From Bacteroidia bacterium (lineage in GTDB: Bacteria; Bacteroidota; Bacteroidia; NS11-12g; UBA9320), in NCBI GenBank assembly GCA_965216465.1, contig CBDCFW010000006.1:1216001-1280000 (forward strand): a DNA stretch of 64,000 nucleotides. Reading direction: 5' to 3'. Shown here one piece after another: positions 2,939 to 64,000 of this stretch. The notes under the pieces are model-generated. The model worked only from the letters and a program-made list of their open reading frames with translations, did no database searches and was not told where the DNA came from. A program made the translations under genes and the position numbers. Positions within the stretch are counted from its first letter, which is position 1. Every line of letters begins with the position of its first letter.

Positions 2939-3012
2939 GTTTCTAATAAACGCTACGAATTTAAAAATGATTGCCTACAATCAGCAAGAAATAAATCGGC
3001 TTTAACTTGTAC

Positions 3013-42294: not shown

Positions 42295-42452
42295 CGATTA
42301 CAACCACTAAGGTAAAAAAACCTTGTATATTTTGATGATTAAAATGAATATCTTGCGAGATGTATGACTATGCGATAGTACAGAACACCTTTGTAAGGAA
42401 GCAATAGTGTTTGCATAGTTTAATCGCCTACTTTTGCAGTTGTTTTACCGTT

Positions 42453-44878: not shown

Positions 44879-47265
44879 CTAAAATGAAAATTTAGCAAGC
44901 AACCTGCTGCCATAAACAAATTTATCATCTACGCCATAAAGCTTGACAATTTTGCCGGCTTCTGCATTTAGGGCAAATTCAAGTTTTGAGCTTGCTGCGA
45001 TTCGAAGTTGTAAGATACCTCTGCTTCTATAGGCTCCAATATCGTATTGGTCAATAAATCCATTGAACGATACATTAATTTTTTTACCGCTGGTTTGGTT
45101 AATTCCAATTCGATATCCCCAAAAATTTAGGGTGTCAACAATTGGACCTGTTATGTTTCGGCTGGTCATCGCAGTTATATTCATTTTTTCATTGATAAAG
45201 GTGGTACTCCAAAGTAATAGCTTATTATCTACCTGCATTTGGCCCTGATTGTAATCTACTGTTGAGTTTACAAAAGAAAATATTGAAGAAATTGAATGAT
45301 TCTTATACTGTTTCATGAAAATAAGACTTGCTGTGGTGACGGCAAGTTGATTGTCTGTGCGAAATAGCGTGTCGGGATTATTGTTGCCTTGTTGATAAGG
45401 AGAGTGCTGAATCTGAAAGTTTAATGCCTTGCGGAAACTAGATTTTACGCTTATGCCGTAGCCTGACATCTTATTTGTGGTATTGGATAAACCAGTGATA
45501 TTATCTCTAAAGTCTTTATAAAAAGCTGAAGCTGTAATTCTTCTATCAAAGACTTTTGTTTTTAGTTTTACATCCAACTCATTGTAGTTGCTCCTTAAAA
45601 AAGGATTGCCCCAGTGAGATGTATTTCGGGTTGACGCGTTGCAGTTGGGCATCTATTGAAGTATTTTTTAGGAGTTCATATTTTGAACTCACCTCAAACG
45701 CAAATGGATCTAAGAAGTTCTGAAATGCGGACAAGTCTGGAATTTCAGTTTCTCCCACAGATATTGATTCAGGGTTAAGATTAACTTCCTGCAAAAGTGC
45801 ATGATGTATAGCAAGATTAAGTTTGAGTTTTTTCCCGATGGCAGAACTTGCCTCTAAAGAGTGTAAGATGTTTTGCTTTTGCTCTTCAACACTTCCGTCA
45901 TCAAATAAACTAACACTGGTTAATGCTATTGATCCTGATTTAAGCTGATAAGCCGATCGTATTCCAATTACATTTCTGTTAAACTGGGGTGAAGGTTGAC
46001 TTAACCCAAATGTATTGTATTCTGTTTGGAACGTTTTTTCCTCCGGTAATGTGCAACTCTGTAGACTTAATTTCATACTTAAGGTCTAGGCCTTTTACGG
46101 GAATTCCATTTAATGTATACTCAGAAAAATAAGGATTTGTGGTTCCTACTTTAAAGTGCTGAATTTTGCTTACAATGCTAGCAGCTCTTTTCAGTTTTGG
46201 ATGTTGTTGGGCTTGACTAAGCCAAAAATCAGAAGAATTGATATCAGACTTGAGCATATTCAAACTATCACTCAATCTTTCATAAGATTCTTTGGCTTCG
46301 CTATACTTAGCTTGAAGCTCAGTTTTCTTGGATTCTAATTGTGCAATTCGCTCACGCACTTGGTTAATAGAATCTTGATATTGCTGATACTTTTGATAGT
46401 TTTTCTGATACACAGAGTCATATTTTGCACCACGATCTGAAGCAATACTTTGGGTGCTGTCTTTGATGCTGTTTAGTGAATCAGAAACGAATTGTTTGGC
46501 AGCGTCTTGATATTTTTCTGTATCCAAATCAAAGTCAAAATCAGGTTTGTTGAGCTCAAGCATGCCTAACTCGTGTTTTTTACGTTGAATTTGCCGTTCT
46601 ACGATTTGTTGTTGCTTGCTTATATCGAGCTTATTAGACAAAGAATTTCGTTGTTCTTTAATTCTAGCATCAAGTTTTTCCTTGGCTTTTTGCCGCATTT
46701 GTTTCTTGAATTGTTCTATATCAAATTCTACGGTAAAAAAATTTGAATTATAGAAGGAATTATCTTCTGTTGTATAGTAGAAGTTTGTTTTTAATGGTAA
46801 TCCGTATATTGAAATTGAAGGACTCCCATAAAGTCTAGAATAGAAAAGTTCACTTTTTGAAAATGGATCTAAATAATTGGTGTAATACGATTCTGAAACA
46901 ACTGCACCTGATAAGTCAATATGGCTTAATGGATTCTTGAGTTTTGAACGATGTTGATTTAAATGGCTTTTGACTAAACTGTCAGAATTAACATCTTTAA
47001 ACTTAGACTTTAGATCAACATTAGTTGTAGCATTTTTTTTGATGGAGTCTAGTGAAATATTAATGTCTTTTCGTGACATTTTTGGAATCTTTTCTTGAAG
47101 AGATTCTTTTTTATGTTGCAGGCTATCTGTTATTTCCCTTTTGAAATCATCTGTGTTTGGTATCGAATCAGAGAGAACTTGGGCGGAAGTAAATTGCTGA
47201 TAGCCAAACAATAGCATCCATAATATAAAGAATAACCGAGGTGGTATGTGGTGTTGAGTTTTCAA
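44879..47265 (-). CDS. Large (~794 aa) secreted coiled-coil plus C-terminal beta-barrel protein, split into three ORFs by two frameshifts
   Basis: Track ORFs 45979..47265, 45579..46076 and 44879..45652 join if one base is removed at 46034-46039 (T6) and one at 45609-45612 (C4), giving ..ITGGKTFQ.. and ..YISLGNPFLRS..; signal peptide, K/Q/E-rich coiled coil, terminal LLAKFSF. Confidence 0.7.
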
Positions 47266-47448
47266 TTCAAGTATCCAAAAGTAAATTATTTTTTGTTAAA
47301 CCCTTGCAATAAATAAGTTAGCACTCCGATAATAAAATTATTTAAAATTAATTTGGCTATACGAAATTTTCATCCCAATTTTACACCTGAAAAACTTTAA
47401 ATATTCTTTTGACGTTTCTGAATATTTGAACTCTAACTTTACGAAAAC

Positions 47449-48576
47449 ATGAGACAAAAGCTACTGATCCTTTTACTGGGGATTGCTACGTATGGAAATT
47501 CGCAAACTTTGATCCAACCGATACCGGTCGGAGGCTTTCAAGTGATGTGCGAAAATCTAGTAAACTTTAATGTAATCCATTCCAATTCTGAGTCGGTTAA
47601 TGTGAAATATTAAATATCTGTTCAGCAGGTAGGAGCAGGAACTGTTGTTCAAATGACTTCAGGCATTCATGTGCTGAAAAGCGGCATTAACAACTACAAC
47701 ATTTCAAACATTAACATTGTAGAAAAGCATTATGCCAAATCTGATTTTGCACAATATGAAGCAAAAATGCGTTCATTCCCGATTGGTAGCTATGAGTATT
47801 GTATTGATATCATTTGTGTAGACGAGTTATCAAAGTGTGAAGAGGTGTTAGAGAGTGAAATTACGCGTAAGCAATGCCACGATTTCACCATTCTTCCGAT
47901 GACGCCATTGCTACTTTCTTCACCTGATGATGAAGAAGTAATCGAGACTGTTCGACCAAACTTTACTTGGATCCCACCTATGCCTTTAGGCAATGACCCA
48001 GACATTAGCTACGATTACACTTTAGTGAAATTGAATGAGGATCAGCGCGGTGAAGACGGGATAAGAAGAAATCGTCCTCTTTACGAACGCCAAGGTATTC
48101 AAGCCATAAATTTAGTTTTCCCTTCTACGTTAGAAGATTTAGAGCGTGGTGAACGTTACGCTTGGCAAGTTAAAGCAAGATTGGGTGATGTTGTTGCTGG
48201 AATATCAGAAGTATGGGAATTTGAAGTGGAGGAAGAGAATGAACCACAGAAGTATGTACTTTTAAGCAAAACACCTAACGCTGCAATTTTTGACTATAAG
48301 GATGATGACGTAATCTATTTTATGCATAAATCGCCATATGCTGGCACCAATTATACGATTCGAATTAAAAGTACAGAAGGCGAGATTGTTGCAGATAACC
48401 TGTCTAAAGACTTGTTACTTCGTCAGAACAATGACCACAATGAAACTAAACACACTGGATTAAATACTTACCAGCTTGAACTGAAGAGGTTTAATCTCAA
48501 TCCGGGTATCTATACTTTGATTTTAGAAGACATTAAGTCAAATAAATTCACCATGAAATTTCAAATTATTGAATGA
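47449..48576 (+). CDS. Secreted Ig/FN3-like protein, first gene of the Rhs/YD operon; internal TAA at 47611
   Basis: ATG 47449 (MRQKLLILLLGIATYGNSQ signal peptide) is in frame with track ORF 47653..48576 except for one TAA; PNFTWIPP, YAWQVKA, SEVWEF. Confidence 0.65.
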
Positions 48577-49061
48577 AGAACAGTTTATTAGCCTTACTAA
48601 CCATCCTTTTACTCAGTAGCTGCTCTAATAGCGAGATTAGAACAGTCGATATCAAACAACTGTTCGATGAGTTTAAGTATACCAAAGAGCTTCAACTTGA
48701 ATATAAATTAAAGACCCAACAAGAAGAGGCTGCATTGGATAGTATGTACAAGCAGTTAGCTGCTATCAAGCAACTAACTTTGAGTGATGGGAGCACTGAA
48801 GCTGCAGTTCAAGAAATGGAGATGCGGTTTAATCAACGCTATACGCGATTTGAAGATTTTAAGGCTGAACTTACAGCTAAGTCTGATGAAAAGGTGCTGA
48901 ACCAACTTAGTAACTATATACAACAATACGCGGAGAAGAAAGAGCTGGATATGATTGTAGCCAAAACTCAAGATGATGTAACCGTGCTTTACGCTGAAGA
49001 GTCAATGGATATAACCCAAGAAGTTTTAACTTTTATTAATGACCTCTACGATGCGAAGTAA
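48573..49061 (+). CDS. OmpH/Skp-like protein with lipoprotein signal
   Basis: LSSC lipobox, VDIKQLF, helical coiled coil, YAEKKELDMIV..VLYA..DITQEVL; ATGA overlap. Confidence 0.75.
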   Translation: MKNSLLALLTILLLSSCSNSEIRTVDIKQLFDEFKYTKELQLEYKLKTQQEEAALDSMYKQLAAIKQLTLSDGSTEAAVQEMEMRFNQRYTRFEDFKAELTAKSDEKVLNQLSNYIQQYAEKKELDMIVAKTQDDVTVLYAEESMDITQEVLTFINDLYDAK

Positions 49062-49602
49062 GTTGTTTATATACGTTATTTCCGTTCTAATGTGCTCTGC
49101 ATGTTCAAAGTCCAGTAGTGAGCAACAGCAGGACGTTGGCACAAGTTCGGTTCCTTTAAACTCGAAAAAAGAAAATCAACTAAAAGAGTTTCGGAATGCT
49201 AATTATGCACTAACGTATTTAACACCAGAGTATCGTGCAAGTCAGCTTTATGAAACAGGCTCAAGTCAGTATAGAGCGGAATTAATAAACCAGCAAGAAC
49301 AGAGTGTTTATCGGTTGAGAATTTCTAATAATTTAGGTAAACCTGTACTTGACTATGATCACCCTGATCTATATAATCGAGAAGATAGGCTCCAGTACTT
49401 TATGAACAGTTTTCCTTTAGGAATTACCATGCTGTCAGAAACAGATACTTTAAAACCAAGCTTTTACCATTTGGTTCAACCCAATCCAATGGTTCCATAT
49501 ATTGACCTAATGGTGGGTTTTGATCAAAAATATAACCCAAACGATCTATTTCAATTTGAAGATGAATACTTTAACAATGGACGAATAAAACTAAGAACGT
49601 AA
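49051..49602 (+). CDS. Hypothetical lipoprotein of the Rhs/YD operon
   Basis: MRSKLFIYVISVLMCSAC lipobox; start overlaps the OmpH stop. Confidence 0.65.
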   Translation: MRSKLFIYVISVLMCSACSKSSSEQQQDVGTSSVPLNSKKENQLKEFRNANYALTYLTPEYRASQLYETGSSQYRAELINQQEQSVYRLRISNNLGKPVLDYDHPDLYNREDRLQYFMNSFPLGITMLSETDTLKPSFYHLVQPNPMVPYIDLMVGFDQKYNPNDLFQFEDEYFNNGRIKLRT

Positions 49603-49604
49603 CT

Positions 49605-52600
49605 ATGAAATCTATAATTAATAACATTCGGAGAGTAGCATTTTTGTTGCTTTTGATTTTCTCGATAGAGATTGTCTCTCCTCTTACTGCATTTGCCTTA
49701 ACTGGAGGCCCATCTCAGCCTGAAGTTCAAAGCTTTCAACCTGTTGGGGCATCGGATATGGTTGATCTATTTACTGGGGATTTTTCATATAATATACCTC
49801 TGCTTGATGTCGATGGTTACCCCATTAATTTAAGTTATTCTTCAGGGATTTCAAACGACCAAGAGGCAAGTTGGGTAGGATTAGGATGGAACATAAATCC
49901 AGGTGTAATCAACAGAGCGATGCGCGGAATTCCAGATGAGTTTAGCGGAGATCGAATCATTAAGAAACAAAAAACGAAACGAAATTTAACTATCAATGCC
50001 AATTTCGCACCTGATGTTGAGTTTTTTGGTAAACCAAAAACCAAAAAAACGAAGAGCGGAGATTCTATTAAATATGGTGTAAATCTGGCATACTCTTTAG
50101 GAATGAAATGGAACAACTATACTGGGTTTTCTATAGAACCAACCTTAAATGCTGGAGTATTTGTAGGCGGAGATAAGGGGACCATGTCTGGCGGACTAGG
50201 ACTTACGTCTACTTCTAGCGGTTTAACTATATCTCCAGATATCAGCTATGAGAAAAAGATTGATAAGCTAGACAAAGAGAGCAAGCGTCCAGACTTTATT
50301 AAATTTGGTTTAAGTACAAATTATAACGCACTTAGTGGATTTTCTTCACTAACCATTTCTAAGACCACAATGGACAAAGGTGCGATTGATGATAACAAAA
50401 AGAAAAGACGTGGGGCGGGAGCTGGATCTATAAATATTGGAATACGATCATATACCCCAGCTATCTCCATGCCGCTTAAGAATTTTAATGGAAGTTTTAC
50501 CTATAAATTTGGTCCGGATGCGATTGGTTTTTTTCCAAATGCTACCATTTCAGGATCAGTTTCGGAGCAACATTTGAACGTTCCTGAAACTGGATTGAGA
50601 ATGCCCGCTTATGGCTACAACAACACCGACAAGGCGGTAAGAAGTAATGGTGAAATGAGGGCAGTTCAGGATGTGAATAGAGATTGGGATATGCCTTACA
50701 GTAAAAATACTCCTGCCTTACCAATTACTAATTTTACCTATGACTTTCTAAGTGTAAGTGGTCATGGTGTAGGTGGTACTTTTAGACCATTTAGGGGAGA
50801 TTATGGTTATGTATCTGACAATTACGCTCGTAATATTAGCGTAGGTGCATCTATGGGATTGGAAAGTGGATTCGGGAACACCAATGAAACCGGTTTTAAA
50901 TATGAAGACAATGTAGTAACCACTACAACAAAAACATGGGTGCGTCAAAATAGAATGGCTGAAAAATTCTATTACCAGCGTGATAGAGAAGAAGCCGATT
51001 ATGAGGCTTATACATACAAACAGTTGGGCGAACTTTCTGTTGACGATGAGCCTGAATTTTACAACATGATTCAGAACGATAAGGCGGTAAAAGTACAAAT
51101 TGAAAAAGGTGGAGGCTTTCAAACAAAGGCAAATAATGTTCTGGTTGATGCTGCAGATCAAACTTATGAAATGAGTGGAAAAGGTTACCGAACGAAACGC
51201 CTTAAAAGAAATCAGACCTTAACCATTGTTTCTCAAAAAGAACGTATTGCAAGAGGAGATTTGGGGGCTCAAGATCTAACGAATATTCCCGGCCATCACA
51301 CTTCTGAAATAACCGTTACACGAAACGATGGAGCTCGCTACATTTATGGAATTCCAGCATACAATCGCACGCAGGAGCAGGTTAGTTTTGCAATTGGAAT
51401 GGATCGAAATCCTGGCAAGAAAGATCGAGAAAATTTTTCAACTTTCCGGGCTAAAATACTGGATGAGAAAGGAGTTTTCCGATATAAAAGTGAACACAAC
51501 AAAATGGACAATGAATATGGTGTCGATAATTTCTATTCCAATACCATAATGCCTGCTTATGCGCATTCTTATTTATTGACTTGTGTCTTGTCTTCAGATT
51601 ATGTTGATTCGGATATGGAACCAGGTCCATCAGATCATGATATTGGTAACTATACCCGATTCGAATACGAAAAGCTTCCTGAATTGTATAAGTGGAGAAC
51701 GCCTTATGAGAATTTTGAAGCCAACTACAATGAGGGGTTGAAGTCAGACTTTTCGGATGACCAGGCAAGTTATGTTTATGGAGAAAAAGAAGTGTGGTTT
51801 TTAAGTAAGATAGAATCAAAAAATACAATTGCAATCTTTCATACCTCCGCACGTCACGATGGTTATGGTGTTGCAAATGAAAATGGAGGTCGAAGTACAT
51901 CAACCCCTTCTACTCACAAGCTTGACAAAATAAGCTTGTATTCTAAAAAAGACTATGAAGATAACGGTCAGAATGCAGTGCCAATTAAAGAAGTACACTT
52001 TGAATATGACTACCACCTGTGCCCTAACGTGCCAAACAATGACGGCCAACCGGAATTAGATGCGAATAATGATGATCTTAATGAAGACAAAGGCAAGCTG
52101 ACCCTAACTCGCGTCTATTTTACATATGGTAATTCAAACAAAGCTAAATTTAGTCCTTATGTGTTTGATTATTCAGATTTCAACCCAGATTACGGGCTAA
52201 AGAATTACGACAGATGGGGAAATTACAAAGCACCGGCAACAGGCTCAGACTTATTTGATTCTCAGTCAGAAATGACCAATTCTGAGAATCCTTATGTTGG
52301 CAAAGACAAGACGAACGCAGATCTCTACGCTTCTGCATGGACACTCAAAAGTATTAACCTACCTTCTGGGGGAACGATTTCAATAGAAGTTGAGGCCGAT
52401 GATTATGCCTATGTTCAAGACGAGGTGGCTCATGAGATGTTCAGAATTGTTGAAACTGGAAATTCAGAGGCCAGTTTGGAGGATGCAAGTCCAACTGCTA
52501 AATTAATGGATATAGACAACAACGACGAGGTCTACCAATGGGTTAAATTTCCTTTAAAGTCAACTCTTGATCCTTCTACGACCGATGATGAGTTTAAAGA

Positions 52601-55034
52601 GATGTATACCCAAGGTATAGAGAATAACATTTATTTTAAATGCTTAGTGGACATAACCGGTAAGCAAGACTATGAATATGTTAATGGTTACTGCCAAATC
52701 AGTGACGCTGGCTTGGTAGATAATGGGGGAAGTCCATACGAATATGGATGGCTCAAAATAAATAAGGTGCCAAAAAATAGTTTGGGTCTTGGTGATTATG
52801 TACATCCAATTTCTAAGGCTGCATGGACGTTCGGGTTAAACGCTATGCCACAACGTGTTATTGGTAAAGATTGGGATGATAATGGAGGATTTAAAGATTT
52901 TCTTCGGGTGCTTGGAGATGCAACTTTTGTTAAAGGATTGGTGCAAGCGTTTAAGGGTCCAAATGATGTAATTAAATCAAATGGTGGAGGCGTGAATATT
53001 TCGAGTACTAAATCACTCATTCGACTAAAGACCCCTGATTTAAAGAAAATCGGAGGAGGATTACGTGTTAAGAAGATATTAGTATCAGATGAGTGGGCTA
53101 CAATGGCCAACGCTGCAACAAATCCGTCTCAAGTAATTGGATCTGAATATTCGTATACAATGCAAGAAGATAGATACGATGATCCTATATCTTCAGGTGT
53201 TGCTGCATGGGAGCCAGCGATTGGGAATGATGAAAATCCATTGCGTATTCCTATCTACTATGGAGACGAAGATGCAAGAGTAATTTCAATCAAAAATGTA
53301 GATTATCTTGAAGGGCCAATTGGCGAGAGTTTCTATCCCAATCCAAGTGTTGGATACCGAACGGTTACTGTTAAATCCTTATCACACAACGATATTAACC
53401 GTCACGCTACAGGTAAAACAGTACATAAATTCTACACTGCGAAAGAATTTCCTGTCATTTCTGAGCAAACTTCAATTACCCCAGTTAAGAGCAGAACCCC
53501 AAGCTTATTAGCTGGTATAAACCCCTATTCAAGAGATCACATGGCAGCCTCTCAAGGCTATGCCATTCAAGTAAATGATATGCACGGCAAACAGCGCTCG
53601 GTAGAAGTGTATCAAGAGGGAAATACTGATCCCATTTCAGGGGCAAAATATATCTACCAATCCGATCCTTACGAAGAAGGATCTTGGAAATTGAATAATA
53701 CCTGTACTGTTGTTCGTCCAGATGGAAGCACTGACCAGCGAGAAATTGGAGTAGAATTTGACTTTGTTATGGACTTCAGACAGCAACAAACTCTGGGTAT
53801 TTCTCGTTCGGTAAGTCCGCAAGTAAGTACATTCTTAGCCGCCTTTTTGCCGGGAGTAGTTCCTTCAATATGGCCGGGCCTAAGTGTTGATGACACTCGA
53901 TTTAGAAGTGCGGTGACAACTAAAGTCATTAATCGATACGGAATATTAAGCGAGGTTGTAGCCTTTGATTTAGGCTCTGAGATAAGTACGAAAAATCTGG
54001 CGTATGATTCTGAAACAGGACTGGTACTGCTAACTCAAACAGTGAACGAATTTGAGGATGACATTTACAACTTTAACTATCCAGCGCACTGGTATTACGA
54101 TGGAATGGGTCAAGCTTATAAAAACTTAGGATTAGAGTTTGCAAGCATAACGCTGACCTCAGGAATACTTTCAGGCGTAGAAAATGCTCACACCTACTTT
54201 GTTCCTGGAGATGAGCTTTTACTCGACAATAAGAAAAAGGCATGGGTGCTGAGTGTTAATGGGGAAGATGTCACCATTATAAATAAAGCAGGAGGAATAA
54301 TTACAGGCACATACAGTACCTTAAAAATAATCCGCTCTGGAAGAAGGAATATGATTGGTGTTGGCATGGGAAGCATGGTAACAATGGAGAATCCTTTACC
54401 TTTTTTACAAAGCAATCAGTTTAATAAAGTACTGAATACTTCAACCCAAGAGTATAAAGAGGATTGGGAGACATTTTGTGAATGCTACAATAATTTAGGT
54501 TCGCCGATGATTTCAACCAGTAATCCATACCTGAATGGGGTAAAAGGAACGTGGAGACCGTTTAAGTCGTATGCCTATTTAACTCCGAGAAACCATACGT
54601 GGGACGACAACAATACGAACATTCGTGAAGATGGAATCTATTCCCGTTACAATCCTTTTTGGATATGGGGAGACAATGCTTGGGGAATTGATCAAACCAA
54701 CTGGACTTGGACTTCTGAAATAACGAAATACACCCCTTATGGGGCTGAGATTGAAAATATGGATGCCTTATACCGTTATAGCTCAGCGGTTTATGGCTAC
54801 AATAAATCAATTCCCACAGCAGTGGGGAGCAACATGCAGTATCGTGAAATCGCTTTTGATGGATTTGAAGACTACGACTACTCGAGTTGTGCAGACGACC
54901 ACTTTAGCTATAGACCATACATAGCTGATGTAACGGAAGAAGCCGCACATACAGGTAGAAGTAGTTTGAAAACGGGAAATGGAGACAGTGCTGTGGTTAT
55001 AAAGACTTTAGTTGACTGTGAAGAAGGAATATAG
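49605..55034 (+). CDS. 1809-aa secreted YD/Rhs-shell-like protein with SpvB/TcB-like N-terminus
   Basis: Signal peptide ending AFA; VDLFTGDFSYNIPL..ASWVGLGW..RGIPDE, WFLSKIES, DRWGNY, LKSINLPSGG, GGGLRVKKI, VGYRTVTV motifs of Bacteroidota YD proteins. Confidence 0.75.
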   Translation: MKSIINNIRRVAFLLLLIFSIEIVSPLTAFALTGGPSQPEVQSFQPVGASDMVDLFTGDFSYNIPLLDVDGYPINLSYSSGISNDQEASWVGLGWNINPGVINRAMRGIPDEFSGDRIIKKQKTKRNLTINANFAPDVEFFGKPKTKKTKSGDSIKYGVNLAYSLGMKWNNYTGFSIEPTLNAGVFVGGDKGTMSGGLGLTSTSSGLTISPDISYEKKIDKLDKESKRPDFIKFGLSTNYNALSGFSSLTISKTTMDKGAIDDNKKKRRGAGAGSINIGIRSYTPAISMPLKNFNGSFTYKFGPDAIGFFPNATISGSVSEQHLNVPETGLRMPAYGYNNTDKAVRSNGEMRAVQDVNRDWDMPYSKNTPALPITNFTYDFLSVSGHGVGGTFRPFRGDYGYVSDNYARNISVGASMGLESGFGNTNETGFKYEDNVVTTTTKTWVRQNRMAEKFYYQRDREEADYEAYTYKQLGELSVDDEPEFYNMIQNDKAVKVQIEKGGGFQTKANNVLVDAADQTYEMSGKGYRTKRLKRNQTLTIVSQKERIARGDLGAQDLTNIPGHHTSEITVTRNDGARYIYGIPAYNRTQEQVSFAIGMDRNPGKKDRENFSTFRAKILDEKGVFRYKSEHNKMDNEYGVDNFYSNTIMPAYAHSYLLTCVLSSDYVDSDMEPGPSDHDIGNYTRFEYEKLPELYKWRTPYENFEANYNEGLKSDFSDDQASYVYGEKEVWFLSKIESKNTIAIFHTSARHDGYGVANENGGRSTSTPSTHKLDKISLYSKKDYEDNGQNAVPIKEVHFEYDYHLCPNVPNNDGQPELDANNDDLNEDKGKLTLTRVYFTYGNSNKAKFSPYVFDYSDFNPDYGLKNYDRWGNYKAPATGSDLFDSQSEMTNSENPYVGKDKTNADLYASAWTLKSINLPSGGTISIEVEADDYAYVQDEVAHEMFRIVETGNSEASLEDASPTAKLMDIDNNDEVYQWVKFPLKSTLDPSTTDDEFKEMYTQGIENNIYFKCLVDITGKQDYEYVNGYCQISDAGLVDNGGSPYEYGWLKINKVPKNSLGLGDYVHPISKAAWTFGLNAMPQRVIGKDWDDNGGFKDFLRVLGDATFVKGLVQAFKGPNDVIKSNGGGVNISSTKSLIRLKTPDLKKIGGGLRVKKILVSDEWATMANAATNPSQVIGSEYSYTMQEDRYDDPISSGVAAWEPAIGNDENPLRIPIYYGDEDARVISIKNVDYLEGPIGESFYPNPSVGYRTVTVKSLSHNDINRHATGKTVHKFYTAKEFPVISEQTSITPVKSRTPSLLAGINPYSRDHMAASQGYAIQVNDMHGKQRSVEVYQEGNTDPISGAKYIYQSDPYEEGSWKLNNTCTVVRPDGSTDQREIGVEFDFVMDFRQQQTLGISRSVSPQVSTFLAAFLPGVVPSIWPGLSVDDTRFRSAVTTKVINRYGILSEVVAFDLGSEISTKNLAYDSETGLVLLTQTVNEFEDDIYNFNYPAHWYYDGMGQAYKNLGLEFASITLTSGILSGVENAHTYFVPGDELLLDNKKKAWVLSVNGEDVTIINKAGGIITGTYSTLKIIRSGRRNMIGVGMGSMVTMENPLPFLQSNQFNKVLNTSTQEYKEDWETFCECYNNLGSPMISTSNPYLNGVKGTWRPFKSYAYLTPRNHTWDDNNTNIREDGIYSRYNPFWIWGDNAWGIDQTNWTWTSEITKYTPYGAEIENMDALYRYSSAVYGYNKSIPTAVGSNMQYREIAFDGFEDYDYSSCADDHFSYRPYIADVTEEAAHTGRSSLKTGNGDSAVVIKTLVDCEEGI

Positions 55035-55052
55035 AAAATTAAAAAAGTACAA

Positions 55053-55631: not shown

Positions 55632-55668
55632 ACTTATTCTATGGAAACTCTAATTTAAAACTAAAACT

Positions 55669-57831
55669 ATGAAAAATTCGAGAATACTCATATTTATATG
55701 TTATTCACTGTTCTGGCAACTTTCATTTGCTCACAGTGTTGTTGAAACGGAAAAATTGCTAGAGGAGAAAAGCGTGGTATCGTTTATTCTTCAAAAAGGA
55801 AATGAATTGAACTGGGACCAAAAGATTTTACAAGTCTTCGTTTTTAAGAACTTCGTTGAATTGGAGGATGATGTATTGAAGACAGCGAATTTGGCCTTTC
55901 ATGAACACATGGAACTAAACGAATTGGCTGTTGTTTTGGACGAAATTAACTCCAAGTACAATGGCATGCTGGAAGCATTTGATTCTGAGATGAAGGCGGA
56001 CCCCAATCTGATTGAATCTTCAATTGCCGAAATGAATTCAATTGCTCAAGCATCAGCCGCCTCAAACTGTACCAATGTAGGTTTTGAAAGTGGGGCATTT
56101 ACTAACTGGGAAGTACGTTTGGGCTATCGTTGGTACTGTGATTATTCAAGAGAGACGACCAACTTAAACTGTTTCAATTTTAATCCATCTTCATATGCAA
56201 TCGCCAATGCTGCAAATACTTCTAATCCACAATTTGGAAATCGATTGGAGATTATTGACAAGAATACTGTTCCAAATTTATATGACGATTTTGTAGGAGG
56301 TGAAGCCTTACCTATGGTGAGTCCTGATGGAGGTAATTACTCCATTCGCCTCGAGAACAAGACCAATGGATACGGTGCTACCGAGATCAGTTACGAATTT
56401 GTTGTAGATCCTAATAACCCCTTCTTTGAGTATCAGTTTGCCGCCGTGATGGAGGATCCTGGGGAAAGCCACCCGGCAGAGAGCAAGCCATTCTTTTCGG
56501 TGAAAATTTATGAAGACAATGGAGACGAAATTGAGTGTGCACGATATATTGTAATTGCGGATTCTGAAGATAAATACTTCGAAACCAATATTTATAAAGA
56601 AGTTCCAGGCAAAGGAGGATTTAAGTACTGTGACTGGCAAAAAATTGCTATCCCATTATCTGAATTCGCTAATGAAACATTAACTATTAAGTTTATAGCA
56701 TCAGATTGTCCTTGGGGCGGACACATGGGCTATGCATATGTAGACGGGTCGTGCTTTAACGCATCTATTACCCAATCAGATTGTAATCTAGATGGTACGA
56801 GAGATCTTGAATTTCCTGAAGGATTTGATTCATATCTTTGGCTTGGTCATGAATTGGTTACAACCAATTCCAGTCGGTCAATTAAGGTAAGAGGAGAAGG
56901 ACCATTTAAGCTGATGGCTCATTCGCGTGGGTGCATGCATATTGACACAATATCTCTCTCCACTTGTGATCAACCTCCTGCACCTAGCTGTGCCCTATCC
57001 TTGAGCAATGTAAATGTTACGGCGTGTGATATTGAGAATGAACATAACGTTACGGGTACGGTTTCAATATCACTGTCAAATTATTCGGGACAACATCATG
57101 TACTAGTGACCAACGGAATTCAAGAACAGGTTTTTGAATACGTAGAAAATACATCACTTAACTTTTCGTTTGAGAATTTGTATTCAGATGGAGAGCAGCG
57201 TGAAATAAAAGCCTATTTATTTACAGATGAATTTTTCGCAAAAGATGCAGCTATTTGTACCCAAACAACAACATACAATGCCCCTGAATCTTGTATAACT
57301 TTTCCGCAGAGTTGTGCGTGCATTGGCTCATTTGCACCTATTCAAAAAGACAAGGTTGTACACGGAATTACCGAATCAGGTATTTATGTCTTGGGTGCAT
57401 GGATTAAGGAACACAATGCTCCGGCAACCCAAATAAGCTACGACGATGCGTATATACGCGTTGAGTTTTACAATGGGGCTACCCAGTTAACCTCAACTAG
57501 CTTCAATGCTTCAGGAATGATTATTGACGGTTGGCAGCGCATACATGAGGAATTTGAAGTTCCACCTACCGCAACATCAATTCAAGTTATTCTAGGCACA
57601 ACCAGTGGCGAAGCTTATTTTGATGATATCCGTATCTACCCTAAAGATGGAAGTATGCAATCGTATGTATATGACCCGGTTAGCTTAAAACTGGTAGCGT
57701 CACTCGATGAGAACAATTACGCAACACTGTACGAGTACGACAACGAAGGGCGACTAATACGAACCAAAAAAGAAACCGAAAGAGGAATAATAACTATACA
57801 AGAAAACAGACAAAGCACTATTAAACAATAA
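55669..57831 (+). CDS. Secreted modular protein: Cys-rich adhesin-like domains plus C-terminal CBM-like/YD-repeat module
   Basis: Signal peptide; CTNVGFESG..YSIRLEN..YQFAAVMEDP..GHMGYAYVD; C-terminal GAWIKE..GWQRI..FDDIRIYP..SYVYDP..YEYDNEGRLIR. Confidence 0.7.
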   Translation: MKNSRILIFICYSLFWQLSFAHSVVETEKLLEEKSVVSFILQKGNELNWDQKILQVFVFKNFVELEDDVLKTANLAFHEHMELNELAVVLDEINSKYNGMLEAFDSEMKADPNLIESSIAEMNSIAQASAASNCTNVGFESGAFTNWEVRLGYRWYCDYSRETTNLNCFNFNPSSYAIANAANTSNPQFGNRLEIIDKNTVPNLYDDFVGGEALPMVSPDGGNYSIRLENKTNGYGATEISYEFVVDPNNPFFEYQFAAVMEDPGESHPAESKPFFSVKIYEDNGDEIECARYIVIADSEDKYFETNIYKEVPGKGGFKYCDWQKIAIPLSEFANETLTIKFIASDCPWGGHMGYAYVDGSCFNASITQSDCNLDGTRDLEFPEGFDSYLWLGHELVTTNSSRSIKVRGEGPFKLMAHSRGCMHIDTISLSTCDQPPAPSCALSLSNVNVTACDIENEHNVTGTVSISLSNYSGQHHVLVTNGIQEQVFEYVENTSLNFSFENLYSDGEQREIKAYLFTDEFFAKDAAICTQTTTYNAPESCITFPQSCACIGSFAPIQKDKVVHGITESGIYVLGAWIKEHNAPATQISYDDAYIRVEFYNGATQLTSTSFNASGMIIDGWQRIHEEFEVPPTATSIQVILGTTSGEAYFDDIRIYPKDGSMQSYVYDPVSLKLVASLDENNYATLYEYDNEGRLIRTKKETERGIITIQENRQSTIKQ

Positions 57832-57835
57832 GACG

Positions 57836-58492: not shown

Positions 58493-58494
58493 CT

Positions 58495-61400
58495 ATGAAA
58501 AGACTTAAACTCATACTTGCCGGGATTTTACTTTACTCTGCATCATCTTTTGGTGCGTTTTATCCTACATCACAGGTTCAAAATTCAGTAAATTTTGGTA
58601 CCACATTGACCTTGCAGGAGCTCAATTATAGTTCGCTTCCAGGAATGTTGGGCTATACCAATGTTTCGGTTAAGAACTATGTTCAACTAAGTGTTGATTG
58701 GGATAATTATACTTACCATAATAAGTATTCTTATCTTATTGAAATAGAGTTGAAAACGAAAAACAGTGCTTTACAGCAAAGCACCCAGGTTATCACAATA
58801 CCTATAGAGTATGATCCCAATGCAAATCCCGGGACCTCGTATAGTGACAAATCAACTTATCGTTTTACCGATGCACATCAAATCGATGCTAAAGTGTTGA
58901 GTGCATATGATGTAATCAATAAAACTCCTGTTACGCTTGCTAGTTTGCCGTCGAATATTTTGATGACCTCGTACATTGGTATTGAACGTTTTGAAGACTT
59001 TAATACTTCAACTACAGTTTGCCCGAGTACCAGTCTTATTACGCATGCAGGTAGTCCGTCTCCAGACGAGTTAGAATTGGAATGGAGTGCAGTTGCAGGT
59101 GCAGAAGAATACGAAGTGCAGTGGACGTTTGTAGACAATTATGCAGACGACTTTGGTGCCATTCCAGCTTCGAGCATAGGCTACGATTTTGATCAAAATT
59201 GTTCTAAAGTACGCTTATCGGCAGAAACAAAATTTAATATTAGCCTAATCTATGAACGAGGCTACGTGATATACCGTGTTCGGGCAATTGGTCGATCACA
59301 AACTGATTTTAAACATCATATTCTTGGTGACTGGGAAGTTCCTGATAATGCAACTAGTTTAACAACACTTTCATGCGGTTACTATTACTTAACAGACGCT
59401 TTTGAATCCGGATTAAACTGGCAATATAGCATGGCATATGCGGAAGAAGGAAAGAGAAAGGAAGTTATAAGCTATTATGATGGAGCTAATAAAAACAGAC
59501 AAGCGGTAACTGCAACAAACTCAAAAGACACATTAGCGATAGTGGGCGAATCGGTTTACGACTACAATGGCAGAAAAGCGATTGACATTCTTCCGGTGCC
59601 TACTCAATCTCCAGCACTTCGCTATTATGAAGATTTTAATATGAACGCTGGCGCTAGCCAGCATTACGGTTGGGAAGACTTTGATAAAGACGGAAGCTCT
59701 GATTGTGAATCGGCTTTAGGAGCACTTTCAACTAGCAGTGGTGCAGCGCAATATTACAGTTCGAACAATCCAGATCAAACTGATGAGAATGCGTTTATCC
59801 CAGATGCAGGAGGATATCCTTTTGCACAAGTTGAATATACTCCAGACAATACTGGACGGGTGAGAAGACAAGGAGGGGTAGGAGAAACACATCAATTGGG
59901 TGCTGATCCTTGGGCAGATAAGTCTACAAAATACTTTTATGGAAAACCAACACAGATAGAACTTGATCGATTGTTTGGTAACGAAGTAGGCTATGCAGTT
60001 CACTACAAAAAAAATATGGTGGTAGATCCCAACGGGCAGGTGAGCATTTCTTACCTCAATTTAGCAGGCCAGGTAATTGCCACGTCGCTTTCTGGAGAGA
60101 AACCAGGCAATGTTAAGCAGTTGCCCAATTTTGAGAATTCGATTTCCCTTTCTTCAGAACTGCTGAATAAAAATCACTTAGGAAACTATATCTCCAACAA
60201 GATTAACCAAGATTTTGATGGAATCGAATTTAGAACCACGTTTGTAACAGGTGTAGCTGGTATACATACATTTACATACTCCACTACAGCTCAGCAGTTT
60301 TTTGACAATTGCTTGGGTTCGTTCTGTATGGATTGTGCTTACGACCTCGTATTTGAGGTGTGGGACGACTGCGGAAACTTGGTAACATCTAAAACACAGT
60401 ACATCGGGCCGAGCGAATTAAACATGAGCTGTGAAACAGTAAGCTATACGTCACCAGCTTGGGATGTTCAGCTTACAAAAGGTTCATACAACATTGTTAA
60501 ACGCCTAGAAATCAACAAGGAAGCATACGATTATTATTTGAATGAGTATCTCAGTGAATCAAACAATACATGTATTACAACCATGGCTGACTTGATTGTT
60601 GAAGAAAAGAATAAACTCGATTACACTGGCTGTGAAATTGATTGTGATGATTGTGTGGATGAGCTTGGTAGCTTAGATGAGTTTATAGCTAAAAACTATG
60701 GAACAGAAGAAGAGTGGCTAGAAGAGTACAATAATTGCGTAGCAGCCTGCCAAGGAGTGAGTCTGTGTGAAAACATTTTCCAAATGATGAAGATGGACGT
60801 TACTCCTGGAGCACAATATGCTAAATACCAGATTGATGGCGAAGTGGGAGTAGACCCATCAGCGTACCCTTTAAGCTTGCTGAACGAAAGCAACAACTTG
60901 CCTCATCCGAATGCAAACTGGAGAAATCCTGTAAAACTTGATGGGAGCGGCGATGAATATAGGGATGAAGATGGTGAAATTAGTAGGATCTATCTCTCAC
61001 GAGACGAGGAGGGGAATTACACTCCTGCCTGCAATCCAGCCTTTATTCTTTTTGATCCTGTTGAAGGCCCTTACACAAAACCTGAAAACTTAACTAATGT
61101 TGAAGACTTTATCTTCTATTGGCAACAGTCTTGGGCAGAATCATTAGTCTACTACCATCCAGAATATGGATATGTAGAATGGTGTCAAGATTTTAATTTA
61201 AAACGCGAGGGCCAAAATGTGATGAATAGTGATGAGTTTGACAATTTTATCTCTTCGCAAGACAATTATGCTGAAGCTAACAGCAATAATTTGACTACCG
61301 ATGATATTGATCACCTGCTGGATATGGACCCGTTCTTTAAAATCTTCACAACCGAAAAAGCTAATATGCAAGCTTTGTTAGCTGATTTTAATGGAACATC

Positions 61401-64000
61401 TTATGACGCTATGGATTTTGCAGCGTTGGTAAACAACTGTGGTAGCGAATATCACGCAACTCCACCACTGCCAGCAAGCTGTACTGCTTGGGGAGCTGAT
61501 GATGACATCTGGCAAACCTATGTTTCATATTACTTAAGTGCTAAGCAGTTTATACAAAAAGAAATTGCGGATGACTGGGTTATATCTACGGGCCGACTAG
61601 GATTTAATGAATGTATTGGCAATGAGAATTATTCGCCTTCTTCAAGTAATTTGCAAAAGCTTGGGACAGCTCCTGTTTCTGGAACTCCTGCATTTGGAGG
61701 GTTAGAAGGTTTGCTAGAACCATGTGGCAATTTAAATTACACCAAATATCTTAATAAAAAACCACGTTTTGATTTAAAAGCAGTAACCGTAAAAGTGGAC
61801 GAGGAACTCGCACGCTTTAATAGATCGTACCAGTTCAATGCCTGTCCGCTTGCCTTAGATTTTGAATTCTTCTTGAATGAGCTAACCAGTAGAGACAAGC
61901 TTAAAACGACACAAACTAATCTGGACTTAAAAGATTTCAAAAGCCTCACTCCTGCATTGTCGGATGTTATCTTTGGAACAAATCCCGCATCTTCCATTAC
62001 TTGGAATAGTTCAACAACCGGTAACGTTTTAACCGGAAGTTTTCAATACAACTCCAATACGGTTAATGTAAGCTTAACACTAAGCAATGGAACATGGAAC
62101 GATGTAACTCGAATTTTTGCAATTTCTGATGTTGTGTTTGACGATGTTTCCGTTCCGAACACATCCAATTTCAACCTTAAAGCATTGCAGTATAATACAA
62201 CCACAGAAGAGTTTTTACAATCTACAATTGTTGGCTCTTTTGATGTTGATTTGAATAAGGATTGCAAGTTTGAGGATGAGTGTGAACCTACCGATTACGC
62301 ATTTACAATTCGCGATATTTTGGCAGGATTAAGTTTGAACGCAAATGATTTAACCTCTACAACTGCGATTCCCCTTGAAACAACCTATTCTACTTTTATA
62401 AAACGATTTGTTCGAAATGAACTAACTGTGGCTACAAATCTTGAGTATACCTTTAATAGTACCTCTAACAAGGGAACCATCCATCAGCAAGGAGCAGTTG
62501 GTTCTGGAATTGATATTAACTTCCCAAGTGGGTTTAGTGTTTCAAGCATTGCAACAATATACGGAATTGAGGTGGATAAAGACAAGGTAGCAAACGGTTT
62601 AGTAATCTTATACATTGATAGTAATGGAGATAAACAAAGCGTTAAAGTAACCGTAAGCAAGGGTCAAACAGCGAAGTGTTTTGACCCTACAAAGATGTTT
62701 TGTGAAGATATTCGCTATGATGTAACTCGCGACTTTGCCTCTTTATTAGAATACTTAATCGAAAATCCTTCAGTAAACAATGTAAACCTGAACGACAACA
62801 ACTTGTATACGGCTTTACTTCAGAGTTATATAGGACACGGTGATGCCGTATTCAATGTTCCTGTAAGTGGCAATGATGGAAACGAATTGACTACAACAAT
62901 TGATGTATTCGAAACGGGAACAGCAAACAAGTTGACTACATGTGAGCTTAAACTTTATAGAAAAATGTATGGTGACGTGCAGACCGATATTCCATTGACT
63001 GATATTACCGATATTGGCGAGTTGCAAGTAGACATGGAAAATCTTCACATGGGAGACGCCCATCACTTTACTGTTTTAGCCGTATTTAATAACAAAACAG
63101 ATTATGCTGAAGAAATTCATGGTTATATATCCTGCCTTCCTTTATTTGATTGTGCTGATTGTGTAGAGAAGGAAGAGGATGATGCAGAAAAGAAATGTGG
63201 AAACTACGAATATGAGTTATATTATCATGAAATGATGCAACTTGGTATGGAAGGTTTGATTATACCTTATTCTGATGATTTTCCTTGCTCTTGTGTTGAA
63301 GAGTATTTATACTATGTAAAACTTGCCGTGCTCAGTGCAAATAGCAATTCCACAGCGATTACCAATGCAGTGCCTCAATTAAATCCAACATTGGGAATTG
63401 ATGAGTTTGTTTTACCACCGTACAACTGTACGGTTACCTTTCCTGACTGTGATGTCACTCAGGAAATTCTACCAAATATCGTAGCTGAAGTCAATAATTT
63501 CAATGCACAATATGCACAATACTTTCCTACTTTAAGCCCGCCTAGTCTGGTAACTGGTGATGATTGTCATTGTGCTGCTAAATATTTAATATATCTAGAA
63601 TTATGGACTTCCTTGTATGGAACCAATGTTCCGCCAATCCCACCATCAGCCATACCCATTCCTCCATTGAGCTATAACAATTTTCAAATTGGAGGTTGCC
63701 AAATTGATCAGTGTCTGGTAAACTATAAAATGTATCGTGACAAAACCACTTCTGTAGGCGGAGTGCCTATTGTATTTGATCCTGCAATTGGGTGTGATTG
63801 TTGGAAACATTATGCACTCGAAGCGAATTTGCTAACCCCTCACTTATCAACTGATATTACAAATTATTGCAGCAATCGATTGATAAACTTAACATCTTCT
63901 TATCCTCCAAAATATGACCACGTTAATTTCGATGAGGAATTGACCATGTTTGAGGTCAGCTATGCAGATGATGCACCTATTGAATCAAGATCAAGAAGCT
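58495..64000 (+). CDS. Giant secreted DUF6443/Rhs-like protein (>1835 aa), 3'-truncated; missing from the ORF track
   Basis: ATG 58495 (MKRLKLILAGILLYSASSFGA); no stop in the stretches I translated, and its absence from the track fits an ORF running off the edge; FN3-like LEWSAVAGAEEYEVQW, then SYYDGANKNRQ..YDYNGRKAIDILP..YPFAQVEY..GRVRRQGG..VVDPNGQV, then Cys-rich inserts. Confidence 0.8.
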   Translation, partial: MKRLKLILAGILLYSASSFGAFYPTSQVQNSVNFGTTLTLQELNYSSLPGMLGYTNVSVKNYVQLSVDWDNYTYHNKYSYLIEIELKTKNSALQQSTQVITIPIEYDPNANPGTSYSDKSTYRFTDAHQIDAKVLSAYDVINKTPVTLASLPSNILMTSYIGIERFEDFNTSTTVCPSTSLITHAGSPSPDELELEWSAVAGAEEYEVQWTFVDNYADDFGAIPASSIGYDFDQNCSKVRLSAETKFNISLIYERGYVIYRVRAIGRSQTDFKHHILGDWEVPDNATSLTTLSCGYYYLTDAFESGLNWQYSMAYAEEGKRKEVISYYDGANKNRQAVTATNSKDTLAIVGESVYDYNGRKAIDILPVPTQSPALRYYEDFNMNAGASQHYGWEDFDKDGSSDCESALGALSTSSGAAQYYSSNNPDQTDENAFIPDAGGYPFAQVEYTPDNTGRVRRQGGVGETHQLGADPWADKSTKYFYGKPTQIELDRLFGNEVGYAVHYKKNMVVDPNGQVSISYLNLAGQVIATSLSGEKPGNVKQLPNFENSISLSSELLNKNHLGNYISNKINQDFDGIEFRTTFVTGVAGIHTFTYSTTAQQFFDNCLGSFCMDCAYDLVFEVWDDCGNLVTSKTQYIGPSELNMSCETVSYTSPAWDVQLTKGSYNIVKRLEINKEAYDYYLNEYLSESNNTCITTMADLIVEEKNKLDYTGCEIDCDDCVDELGSLDEFIAKNYGTEEEWLEEYNNCVAACQGVSLCENIFQMMKMDVTPGAQYAKYQIDGEVGVDPSAYPLSLLNESNNLPHPNANWRNPVKLDGSGDEYRDEDGEISRIYLSRDEEGNYTPACNPAFILFDPVEGPYTKPENLTNVEDFIFYWQQSWAESLVYYHPEYGYVEWCQDFNLKREGQNVMNSDEFDNFISSQDNYAEANSNNLTTDDIDHLLDMDPFFKIFTTEKANMQALLADFNGTSYDAMDFAALVNNCGSEYHATPPLPASCTAWGADDDIWQTYVSYYLSAKQFIQKEIADDWVISTGRLGFNECIGNENYSPSSSNLQKLGTAPVSGTPAFGGLEGLLEPCGNLNYTKYLNKKPRFDLKAVTVKVDEELARFNRSYQFNACPLALDFEFFLNELTSRDKLKTTQTNLDLKDFKSLTPALSDVIFGTNPASSITWNSSTTGNVLTGSFQYNSNTVNVSLTLSNGTWNDVTRIFAISDVVFDDVSVPNTSNFNLKALQYNTTTEEFLQSTIVGSFDVDLNKDCKFEDECEPTDYAFTIRDILAGLSLNANDLTSTTAIPLETTYSTFIKRFVRNELTVATNLEYTFNSTSNKGTIHQQGAVGSGIDINFPSGFSVSSIATIYGIEVDKDKVANGLVILYIDSNGDKQSVKVTVSKGQTAKCFDPTKMFCEDIRYDVTRDFASLLEYLIENPSVNNVNLNDNNLYTALLQSYIGHGDAVFNVPVSGNDGNELTTTIDVFETGTANKLTTCELKLYRKMYGDVQTDIPLTDITDIGELQVDMENLHMGDAHHFTVLAVFNNKTDYAEEIHGYISCLPLFDCADCVEKEEDDAEKKCGNYEYELYYHEMMQLGMEGLIIPYSDDFPCSCVEEYLYYVKLAVLSANSNSTAITNAVPQLNPTLGIDEFVLPPYNCTVTFPDCDVTQEILPNIVAEVNNFNAQYAQYFPTLSPPSLVTGDDCHCAAKYLIYLELWTSLYGTNVPPIPPSAIPIPPLSYNNFQIGGCQIDQCLVNYKMYRDKTTSVGGVPIVFDPAIGCDCWKHYALEANLLTPHLSTDITNYCSNRLINLTSSYPPKYDHVNFDEELTMFEVSYADDAPIESRSRS

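Follow-up and report, generated by a model that had tools for sequence, protein, structure and literature searches.

Among described systems, those closest to the locus considered here are the BC subunits of Tc toxins (TcdB2-TccC3 and YenB-YenC2), in which a large YD-shell protein is encoded beside an Rhs-core protein with a variable C-terminal toxin, the Rhs effectors of type VI secretion systems (T6SSs), and the surface proteins of type V secretion, which follow a Sec-dependent two-step logic. We know of no account of the route by which Rhs toxins that depend on Sec cross, or are mounted on, the outer membrane in diderm bacteria lacking a T6SS. Bacteroidetes RHS toxins have been classed under type II secretion or TcdB/TcaC by Zhang et al. 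2012 (PMC3482391), in the accessible text of which LolA and OmpH do not occur, and the orphan chaperone LolA3 is left without a function in the accessible parts of papers on Flavobacterium johnsoniae (Fjoh_0605) and Porphyromonas gingivalis (PGN0947) (PMC11885536; PMC13103446). Here we describe a gene cluster that brings these elements together in a 64,000-nucleotide stretch (hereafter the window; G000:C6:1216001-1280000, contig CBDCFW010000006.1) of a Bacteroidia bacterium genome (assembly GCA_965216465.1; 3.2 Mb in 6 contigs, ~39% G+C, rated 100% complete). An earlier note on this DNA had proposed a Sec-dependent pathway that exports or displays an Rhs cage through its own barrel and chaperones. 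The analysis presented here leads us to regard the cluster, with confidence evenly balanced, as a widespread Bacteroidota apparatus, anchored in the outer membrane, for the delivery or display of a Sec-exported Rhs polymorphic toxin.

The cluster consists of eight plus-strand genes from 47.4 kb onwards, joined by junctions of -4, -23, +2, +18, +37, +4 and +2 nt, in the order 375-codon gene, OmpH/Skp-like lipoprotein, 187 amino-acid (aa) lipoprotein, 1809-aa protein, 192-aa lipoprotein, 720-aa protein, LolA3-family protein and a giant; a ~795-codon frame lies upstream of this run on the minus strand, in divergent orientation (Table 1). The open reading frames (ORFs) computed here match the coordinates and sizes given in the earlier note, as does the tight packing it reported, with overlaps or gaps of less than 40 nt. 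Judged by eye, a signal peptide or lipobox is visible at the N-terminus of every locus product, in agreement with the Sec or lipoprotein signals seen earlier.

A pattern scan with one genome per species returned at least 590 candidate stretches, 574 of which encode a relative of the 1809-aa protein, and 80 loci were fetched with 10-kb flanks. These loci come from Flavobacterium, Aquimarina, Tenacibaculum, Fluviicola, Crocinitomicaceae, Chitinophaga and other Chitinophagales, Cytophagales, and metagenome-assembled genomes of Bacteroidales, and a single gene order recurs throughout: barrel, 307-type gene, OmpH, lipoprotein, 1809-type gene, adhesin with a conserved module, LolA3, giant. Presence was counted with iterated hidden Markov models (HMMs) built on the 80 loci, for loci with enough flank only. 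The giant is found in 61 of 63 loci, and 54 of 63 have a LolA3-like gene, placed after the module-bearing gene and before the giant; the small lipoprotein of the 187-aa type is found in 59 of 72, the 307-type gene in 41 of 63, OmpH in 38 of 64 and the separate barrel gene in 18 of 57; all five core parts occur together in 42 of 56. Thus, the accessory genes do accompany the large pair, as the earlier note had asked to be checked. The separate barrel, which that note had cast as a dedicated partner, turns out to be the least conserved part and is frameshifted in the window. In three variant loci from Aquimarina and Pelagihabitans (L042, L051 and L052), OmpH, the lipoprotein and a ~2100-aa homologue are kept, and no module, LolA3 or giant was detected downstream; on the gene map of L042, a ~3100-aa ORF without matches follows the homologue.

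The giant, recognised earlier as a DUF6443/Rhs-like product of more than 1835 aa, proved to be 4174 aa long and to end 7019 bases past the window. It is composed of a signal peptide, DUF6443 (residues 315-392), a cysteine-rich middle, a BNR/Ycf48-like propeller from residue 1989, YD-type sequence, a core and a C-terminus. The Rhs core that was to be sought by reading on past the window is present at residues 3857-3922 (TIGR03696, 33.9 bits against a cut-off of 32.5), and three more cores score 36-40 bits in orphan or second copies. On the Pfam model for RHS repeats (PF05593) the giant scores 17.8 bits, below the cut-off of 22, and YD-like motifs are visible by eye. A 94-aa ORF, with a weak DUF3630 match below the cut-off, overlaps the stop codon of the giant. 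It is followed by a 500-aa orphan fragment (pre-core, core and a different C-terminus), then by a 168-aa lipoprotein, and then, in convergent orientation, by a second copy of the last ~2770 codons of the giant, 99.8% identical over 7.4 kb, which carries a third C-terminus with a HEAGH motif and precedes a 237-aa ORF. Three different C-termini therefore come after a near-identical pre-core, followed by ORFs of 94, 168 and 237 aa that, from their position, may be immunity genes, in line with the variable C-terminal toxin and immunity genes that the earlier note had asked to be sought. No Pfam family was found in the ~250 C-terminal residues of the giant or in either of the other two toxin C-termini. 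By its sequence, the giant is a polymorphic Rhs toxin of standard anatomy, with a core and exchangeable C-terminal toxins. Its regions conserved among relatives lie at ~30-900, 1850-1977 and 2893-3465, and in some relatives the inserted propeller block is missing; with ~1760 conserved residues outside this insert, the giant may form a shell on its own.

The two copies form an inverted repeat (G000:C6:1278711-1286073 and 1291970-1299333, window position 62711 onward), with cassettes of orphan toxins and small ORFs filling the ~5.9 kb between its arms. The second copy, within which the contig breaks off, differs from the first by three 1-base length changes in short G or T runs. The first 1406 codons of the giant occur once in the assembly, and recombination between the arms would swap the toxin end of this sole full-length giant gene. 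The HEAGH motif of the third toxin C-terminus (L003:16916-17824, minus strand, G000:C6) suggests a zinc metallopeptidase. A further copy, 99.8% identical to the last 1.57 kb of the giant, its core included, stands at the end of contig C5 (L005, G000:C5:745001-754815), where it adjoins an integrase of phage type, a Tdi1-like immunity gene and a 1221-aa protein with a type IX secretion system (T9SS) C-terminal domain; it could represent a toxin cassette that is mobile or has been mis-joined.

The 1809-aa protein has no Pfam or NCBIfam match at E<=0.01, including YD, SpvB, TcdB_mid and FG-GAP, and no match among Protein Data Bank (PDB) sequences either by phmmer or with a 13-sequence profile at E<=10. 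The best Pfam match of its N-terminal piece, to SpvB, is sub-threshold (E 0.026, 14.2 bits, cut-off 22). Its family is large: more than 3365 relatives were found at E<=1e-3 among 8000 candidates scored, and the 120 relatives listed, of ~1750-1930 aa, align over 98-100% of the query, are all unnamed or hypothetical and have no precomputed Pfam domain. In the ESM Atlas, the protein falls among unnamed clusters only, one of them with RHS_repeat on 10% of its members. An AlphaFold2 model of residues 31-1200, built from 65 sequences, reached a mean predicted local confidence (pLDDT) of 74 and a predicted TM-score (pTM) of 0.73. Foldseek matched this model to mosquito SGS1 (1.8e-5) and TcdB2-TccC3 (~1e-4), then to teneurins and Rhs effectors, with poor global TM-scores, and VIA-align ranked teneurin-2 (Z 12.2) and RhsP (Z 11.1) ahead of TcdB2-TccC3 (4o9x; Z 10.0, 302 residues at 16% identity, spanning 61-803 of the chain) and YenB (5kis; Z 8.7, 306 residues, chain 28-834). 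Because both methods rank TcB, Rhs and teneurin shells, we predict that the 1809-aa protein is a shell protein of the TcB/Rhs/teneurin type by fold; by sequence it cannot be recognised as a TcB. The structural comparison with TcB-TcC and teneurin shells proposed in the earlier note thus came out in its favour for residues 31-1200, and of its description of a "YD protein" the shell fold holds in the model, while no YD or other sequence match does. In other genomes of a phylum sample (G010, G047, G081, G084, G096, G157 and others), proteins of 1600-2800 aa match the 1809-aa profile in part only, chiefly over its N-terminal ~230 positions and at ~750-970, which points to a wider superfamily that includes lineages without the full cluster.

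A second class of VIA-align matches falls at model residues ~90-277 and comprises the translocator domains of the autotransporters AIDA-I, EspP, NalP, BrkA and Hbp (Z 8.6-9.1), as well as OmpG, invasin and FadL. A domain-only model of residues 31-470, made with 73 sequences from the fetched loci, shows 13-16 long antiparallel strands at pLDDT 80-92. In an exhaustive VIA-align comparison with 48,161 chains, membrane beta-barrels, mostly bacterial outer-membrane proteins, fill almost all of the top 50 (Z 6.6-9.8), among them TamA (9.8), CymA (9.1), PelB (8.9), NalP (8.4), FhaC (7.8), CdiB (7.6) and BamA; a designed 12-stranded barrel aligned over 137 of 179 residues. Across the family, hydrophobic columns alternate strictly with small or polar columns in the strands at 127-304. 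These models and comparisons suggest that residues ~122-445 probably form an outer-membrane-type beta-barrel, and this internal domain appears to be a better candidate for the membrane element than the separate barrel gene.

The 720-aa protein is conserved only in its last ~150 residues. This module comprises part of a jelly-roll-like domain and two YD repeats, with the tail ...KKETERG..TIQE.R; scanned alone, the last 161 aa reach 22.6 bits on RHS_repeat, just above the cut-off of 22, which bears out the YD tail noticed earlier. The module occurs in 64 of 67 loci: in 40 it ends a separate protein of 190 to ~2500 aa, and in 24 it forms the C-terminal part of a fusion with the 1809-aa homologue. 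The variable parts in relatives of the 720-aa protein carry SprB, PKD, FN3, Ig and VWA domains in Pfam and are therefore adhesin-like. A complex predicted for the module and the 1200-1809 segment of the 1809-aa protein had an ipSAE score of 0.73 in 3 of 3 runs, as against 0.00 in three controls. This mark is reached by 58 of 80 solved complexes and by 2 of 110 mismatched pairs, counts that hold only roughly because no like complex is known to us and our own alignments were used. The partner has a pLDDT of 80, at least 90% of contacts are shared between runs, and the interface lies between residues 1732-1802 of the 1809-aa protein and module residues 76-111. In the prediction, the last ~70 residues of the 1809-aa protein and the module make up one composite jelly-roll-like domain split over two chains. 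The model supports binding of the module to the 1809-aa protein, and their fusion in other loci is evidence for the link independent of the complex prediction. A composite domain of this kind would therefore mount the variable adhesin-like part of the 720-aa protein on the 1809-aa protein.

The remaining products are small and periplasmic or lipidated in type. The OmpH/Skp-like protein matches PF03938 (E 2.3e-12, 47.8 bits against a cut-off of 32.4) and has a visible lipobox, so that its earlier description as a lipidated OmpH/Skp is borne out; because it scores only 24 bits on the equivalog Skp model, against a cut-off of 237, it is a relative and not Skp itself. The 187-aa lipoprotein has no Pfam match and is always encoded directly upstream of the 1809-aa gene. 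For the 192-aa lipoprotein, no Pfam or NCBIfam family was found and an iterated HMM recovered no relatives in the fetched loci; among the first 40 loci mapped, 6 carry ORFs of 145-166 aa in its place. The LolA-like protein, correctly recognised as such in the earlier note, belongs to the NCBIfam family LolA3_fam (NF053579, 95.5 bits against a cut-off of 83), and 57 of 59 ORFs at the same position in other loci match this family. A profile of these proteins searched against the PDB gave only LolA, at E 0.31, and missed the LolA3 structure solved for P. gingivalis. Of 201 genomes sampled from the phylum, only 3 reach the LolA3_fam cut-off, and 7, including the genome of the window, contain full-length 1809-type genes. 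Matches were taken as spanning the LolA3 model when they reached model position 221 or beyond. For those in G087, G099, G107 (two of three), G139 and G151 (two of three), an 1809-type gene is found 1-4 kb upstream. The genome with the best LolA3_fam match (239 bits) has its cluster genes on two contigs, one with the module gene, LolA3 and giant, the other with OmpH, the lipoprotein and the 1809-type gene.

We suggest the following scheme for how these parts could act together. All of them would cross the inner membrane by Sec, after which the lipidated Skp/OmpH homologue and LolA3 would act as periplasmic escorts for the barrel-bearing 1809-aa protein, for the locus lipoproteins and/or for the unfolded giant. 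The barrel of the 1809-aa protein would anchor the shell in the outer membrane, and the Rhs giant would be held at, or passed through, the 1809-aa assembly. The adhesin-like part would then contact a target cell and the C-terminal toxin be released, with the small downstream ORFs protecting the producer. The proposal made earlier, of an Rhs cage exported or displayed through its own barrel and chaperones, is partly supported, by the co-conservation, the Rhs core and the predicted folds; the separate barrel is the least conserved element, and the export step stays on inferential ground. None of the three outcomes that would have spoken against that proposal (accessory genes not accompanying the YD/Rhs pair, a giant without an Rhs core, export by T9SS alone) was found in checks that were run or partly run.

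Several observations weigh against the delivery or display apparatus proposed here. Export of the giant by way of the local genes is something that we infer. The shell matches align just 210-306 of 1170 model residues, and the barrel matches, at Z 8-10, stand barely above the stated background of VIA-align (typical best Z 7-8), with 115-197 residues aligned in the ten best rows; Foldseek with the domain-only model gave nothing at E<=1e-3 and TM-scores of at most 0.2. OmpH, the 307-type gene and the separate barrel are not universal, although HMM sensitivity may explain part of the shortfall, and two accessory genes, those for the barrel and the 307-type protein, are broken in this assembly. 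Three model-spanning LolA3 matches in the phylum sample (G107:C2, G151:C3:485843, interrupted by an in-frame TAA, and G055, whose genome gave no 1809-type match) were not placed beside an 1809-type gene. In the accessible text of the F. johnsoniae study, deletion of lolA3 gave no gliding or T9SS phenotype, which is neutral, although no essential role is apparent from it (PMC11885536).

The broken genes lie at the upstream edge of the cluster. The divergent gene encodes a signal peptide, a coiled-coil-rich N-terminal half, which is covered in tblastn by intact homologues of 765-881 aa, and a C-terminal half ending in ...KFSF; 12 of 21 homologues longer than 600 aa end in F or W. Its earlier description as a coiled-coil/barrel gene stands as to the coiled coils and a putative outer-membrane product, with the qualification that it is split into three ORFs by two frameshifts, the overlaps of which contain runs of A6 and T6. 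No Pfam match was found for four intact homologues of this separate barrel gene, and in the ESM Atlas its product falls in unnamed Bacteroidota clusters, the nearest named family being DUF6029 at 0.89, which is a lead only. The gene for the 307-aa protein of the earlier note is there, with a signal peptide, and is really a 375-codon frame in which an in-frame TAA follows the signal peptide. The Ig/FN3-like nature ascribed to its product was not confirmed; the sole Pfam match of the 307-aa frame is a weak one to DUF928 (E 1.5e-4, below the cut-off). Longer 307-type relatives bear SprB, CUB and Ig domains in Pfam, and the idea that these long ORFs are fusions with the barrel protein was ruled out on that account. 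Further upstream (window 41520-43650), a short-chain dehydrogenase (SDR) gene on the minus strand and an MscS-type channel gene on the plus strand are each split by a frameshift.

Table 1. Features of the cluster, in window positions.
Feature	Position	Strand	Basis or remark
~795-codon putative outer-membrane protein gene	44879..47265	-	three overlapping ORFs, two frameshifts
375-codon gene (307-aa protein of the earlier note)	47449..48576	+	signal peptide; in-frame TAA 47611-47613
OmpH/Skp-like chaperone, lipoprotein-type signal LLSSC	48573..49061	+	PF03938
187-aa putative lipoprotein, no known family	49039..49602	+	iterated HMM
1809-aa signal-peptide protein, predicted TcB/Rhs/teneurin-like shell, unnamed family	49605..55034	+	predicted fold
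Residues ~122-445 of the 1809-aa protein, predicted transmembrane-type beta-barrel	49968..50939	+	model and VIA-align
192-aa putative lipoprotein, IVSC lipobox	55053..55631	+	N-terminus by eye; sequence not conserved
720-aa signal-peptide protein, variable N-terminal part and conserved ~150-aa C-terminal module (from ~57346)	55669..57831	+	
LolA3-family periplasmic protein, 218 aa	57836..58492	+	NF053579
Giant, first 1835 codons of the 4174-aa Rhs-type polymorphic toxin	58495..64000	+	continues to G000:C6:1287019

We considered how far these lesions, and the wider genome, favour other explanations. One is that the locus is decaying or inactive in this genome, the barrel and 307-type genes being true pseudogenes and the second giant copy a fragment. 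Two frameshifts and an in-frame stop in two upstream genes would be consistent with this, as would the frameshifts in the SDR and MscS genes, five lesions in all within ~6 kb. The next 23 kb contain none, the 5.4-kb and 12.5-kb frames are intact, and the homopolymer runs in the barrel-gene overlaps and the 1-base G/T run changes in the 99.8% copy are typical of long-read errors; public contigs (DNA or of unknown kind, from one study, depth 2-5) are identical where they cover the region, although the matches listed bridge neither the TAA nor the frameshifts. Since the following 23 kb are lesion-free and the second giant copy differs by 1-base run-length changes, a local assembly error behind the lesions is plausible, and we consider decay of the locus to be quite improbable. 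The genome also encodes the T9SS protein SprA, ~180 kb upstream of the window, which leaves room for the giant and its partners to exit by the general T9SS or another housekeeping route through an unrecognised signal, with the local genes folding, anchoring or decorating the product. Such a route would fit the SprB, PKD, Ig_7 (CHU_C-associated) and GBD_T9SS_assoc domains, typical of T9SS adhesins, in relatives of the 720-aa and 307-aa proteins. We nevertheless think it unlikely. As the earlier note had observed for the two complete YD proteins, scans of the locus proteins at E<=0.01 detected no T9SS sorting domain at the C-terminus, neither Por_Secre_tail nor type B, the same scan having found one on an unrelated protein of contig C5; there is no room for a sorting domain because the conserved C-termini are the YD module and the variable toxins; and the cluster has Skp-like and LolA-like proteins and a predicted barrel of its own.

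The remaining alternative is a Tc-like BC toxin directed against eukaryotes, such as grazers or hosts, with the 1809-aa protein as TcB, the giant as TcC, release by lysis or in vesicles, and the adhesins in place of TcA. In favour of this, the fold matches to TcdB2-TccC3 and YenB, at 16% identity, start at the N-termini of those proteins, the 1809-aa N-terminus gives its sub-threshold SpvB match, and the giant has an Rhs core. On the other hand, VRP1/TcA was not found genome-wide (the control genomes were silent too), the Pfam scan at E<=0.01 gave no SpvB, TcdB_mid or FG-GAP match, a small ORF right after each toxin end together with the orphan cassettes is the pattern of interbacterial polymorphic toxins, and the giant may make its shell alone; a Tc-like toxin thus seems to us very improbable. 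The T6SS sheath gene VipB/TssC was likewise not found genome-wide, with a positive E. coli control, and the earlier statement that the window holds no T6SS or TcA gene stands for the 39.8-64 kb that the Pfam scan took in.

If the cluster is instead the outer-membrane-anchored delivery or display apparatus that we favour, then the Rhs polymorphic toxin is of a kind already known and the accessory cluster is what is new. There is a fair chance that the accessory set constitutes a new outer-membrane pathway. A stronger form of the proposal, which we offer tentatively and regard as somewhat doubtful, is a new Bacteroidota-specific machine for outer-membrane translocation and display, in effect a new secretion type, in which a TcB-like cocoon with its own barrel, a dedicated Skp-like lipoprotein, LolA3 and a strand-complemented adhesin pass or present a 4000-aa Rhs toxin to neighbouring cells. 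The cluster supplies candidate parts, conserved across Bacteroidota orders, for the outer-membrane step of Rhs toxins, among them a ~1800-aa protein family with thousands of members and no annotation. It also places LolA3 in a defined genetic context and, were the new-machine reading true, would provide the function missing for that protein; a YD shell joined to a membrane barrel, if confirmed, would be a new architecture for Tc/Rhs/teneurin-type cocoons. The cluster also occurs in Flavobacterium species, which are amenable to genetics, so that the idea can be put to a direct test. Proteins of the cluster neighbourhood are reportedly listed in some secretome work on F. johnsoniae.

As the earlier note had surmised, we found no functional description of this gene set in the literature, subscription papers and supplements lying outside the search. 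No paper on DUF6443 was found, and among Fjoh_0601 to Fjoh_0606 the search returned only Fjoh_0605, in the LolA paper. In the accessible text of a paper on TANFOR toxins (PMC7073777), Rhs appears once, in the reference list, and OmpH, LolA and an operon are unmentioned; that of a Tc survey (PMC7861908) does not mention Bacteroidetes.

The cluster can be placed by comparison with the systems it most resembles. Its YD-shell protein encoded beside an Rhs-core toxin recalls the Tc BC subunits, from which it departs in having no detected TcA, no SpvB, TcdB_mid or FG-GAP match at threshold, and Sec signals on all parts. In TcB, a beta-propeller gate lies further along the chain; the 1809-aa protein of the cluster, in contrast, has a predicted membrane beta-barrel near its N-terminus, and its 4174-aa partner has an N-terminal DUF6443 region and propellers of its own, with immunity-like ORFs downstream. 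With the T6SS Rhs effectors (RhsA, RhsP, Tse15) and WapA, the giant shares a TIGR03696 core, a polymorphic C-terminus, orphan cassettes and small downstream ORFs, and like the Gram-positive WapA it starts with a Sec signal. Unlike the T6SS effectors, it comes with no PAAR or VgrG match in scans of the locus proteins and no sheath gene, and its partner genes are unlike any T6SS adaptor; because the organism is diderm, it needs an outer-membrane step that WapA does not.

The two-step logic of type V secretion (autotransporters, inverse autotransporters and TpsB/CdiB) offers a further parallel, in that a beta-barrel domain goes together, by linkage or as the product of a neighbouring gene, with a huge surface protein ending in a toxin, as in CdiA/CdiB, and fold matches of the 1809-aa protein include NalP, BrkA, EspP, AIDA-I, intimin/invasin, FhaC and CdiB. 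These matches, at Z 7.5-9.1, single out no one barrel family, and in contrast to type V the cluster shows no sequence family match, POTRA or TPS domain in Pfam and NCBIfam scans, its predicted barrel lies inside a YD-shell protein, and its cargo is of Rhs type and not a beta-helix. The 218-aa protein resembles LolA3 of F. johnsoniae and P. gingivalis in passing the LolA3_fam cut-off; the accessible passages of the LolA3 papers do not mention the neighbours of the gene (PMC11885536; PMC13103446), whereas here it sits by an Rhs giant. Finally, teneurins and mosquito SGS1, the best fold matches of the 1809-aa protein, have a YD shell with inserted propeller and plug domains, and the giant similarly has BNR-type propellers inserted in its YD region. 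They differ in being receptors or surface proteins of eukaryotes, outside the setting of a bacterial envelope, with no relation detected at the sequence level in PDB searches.

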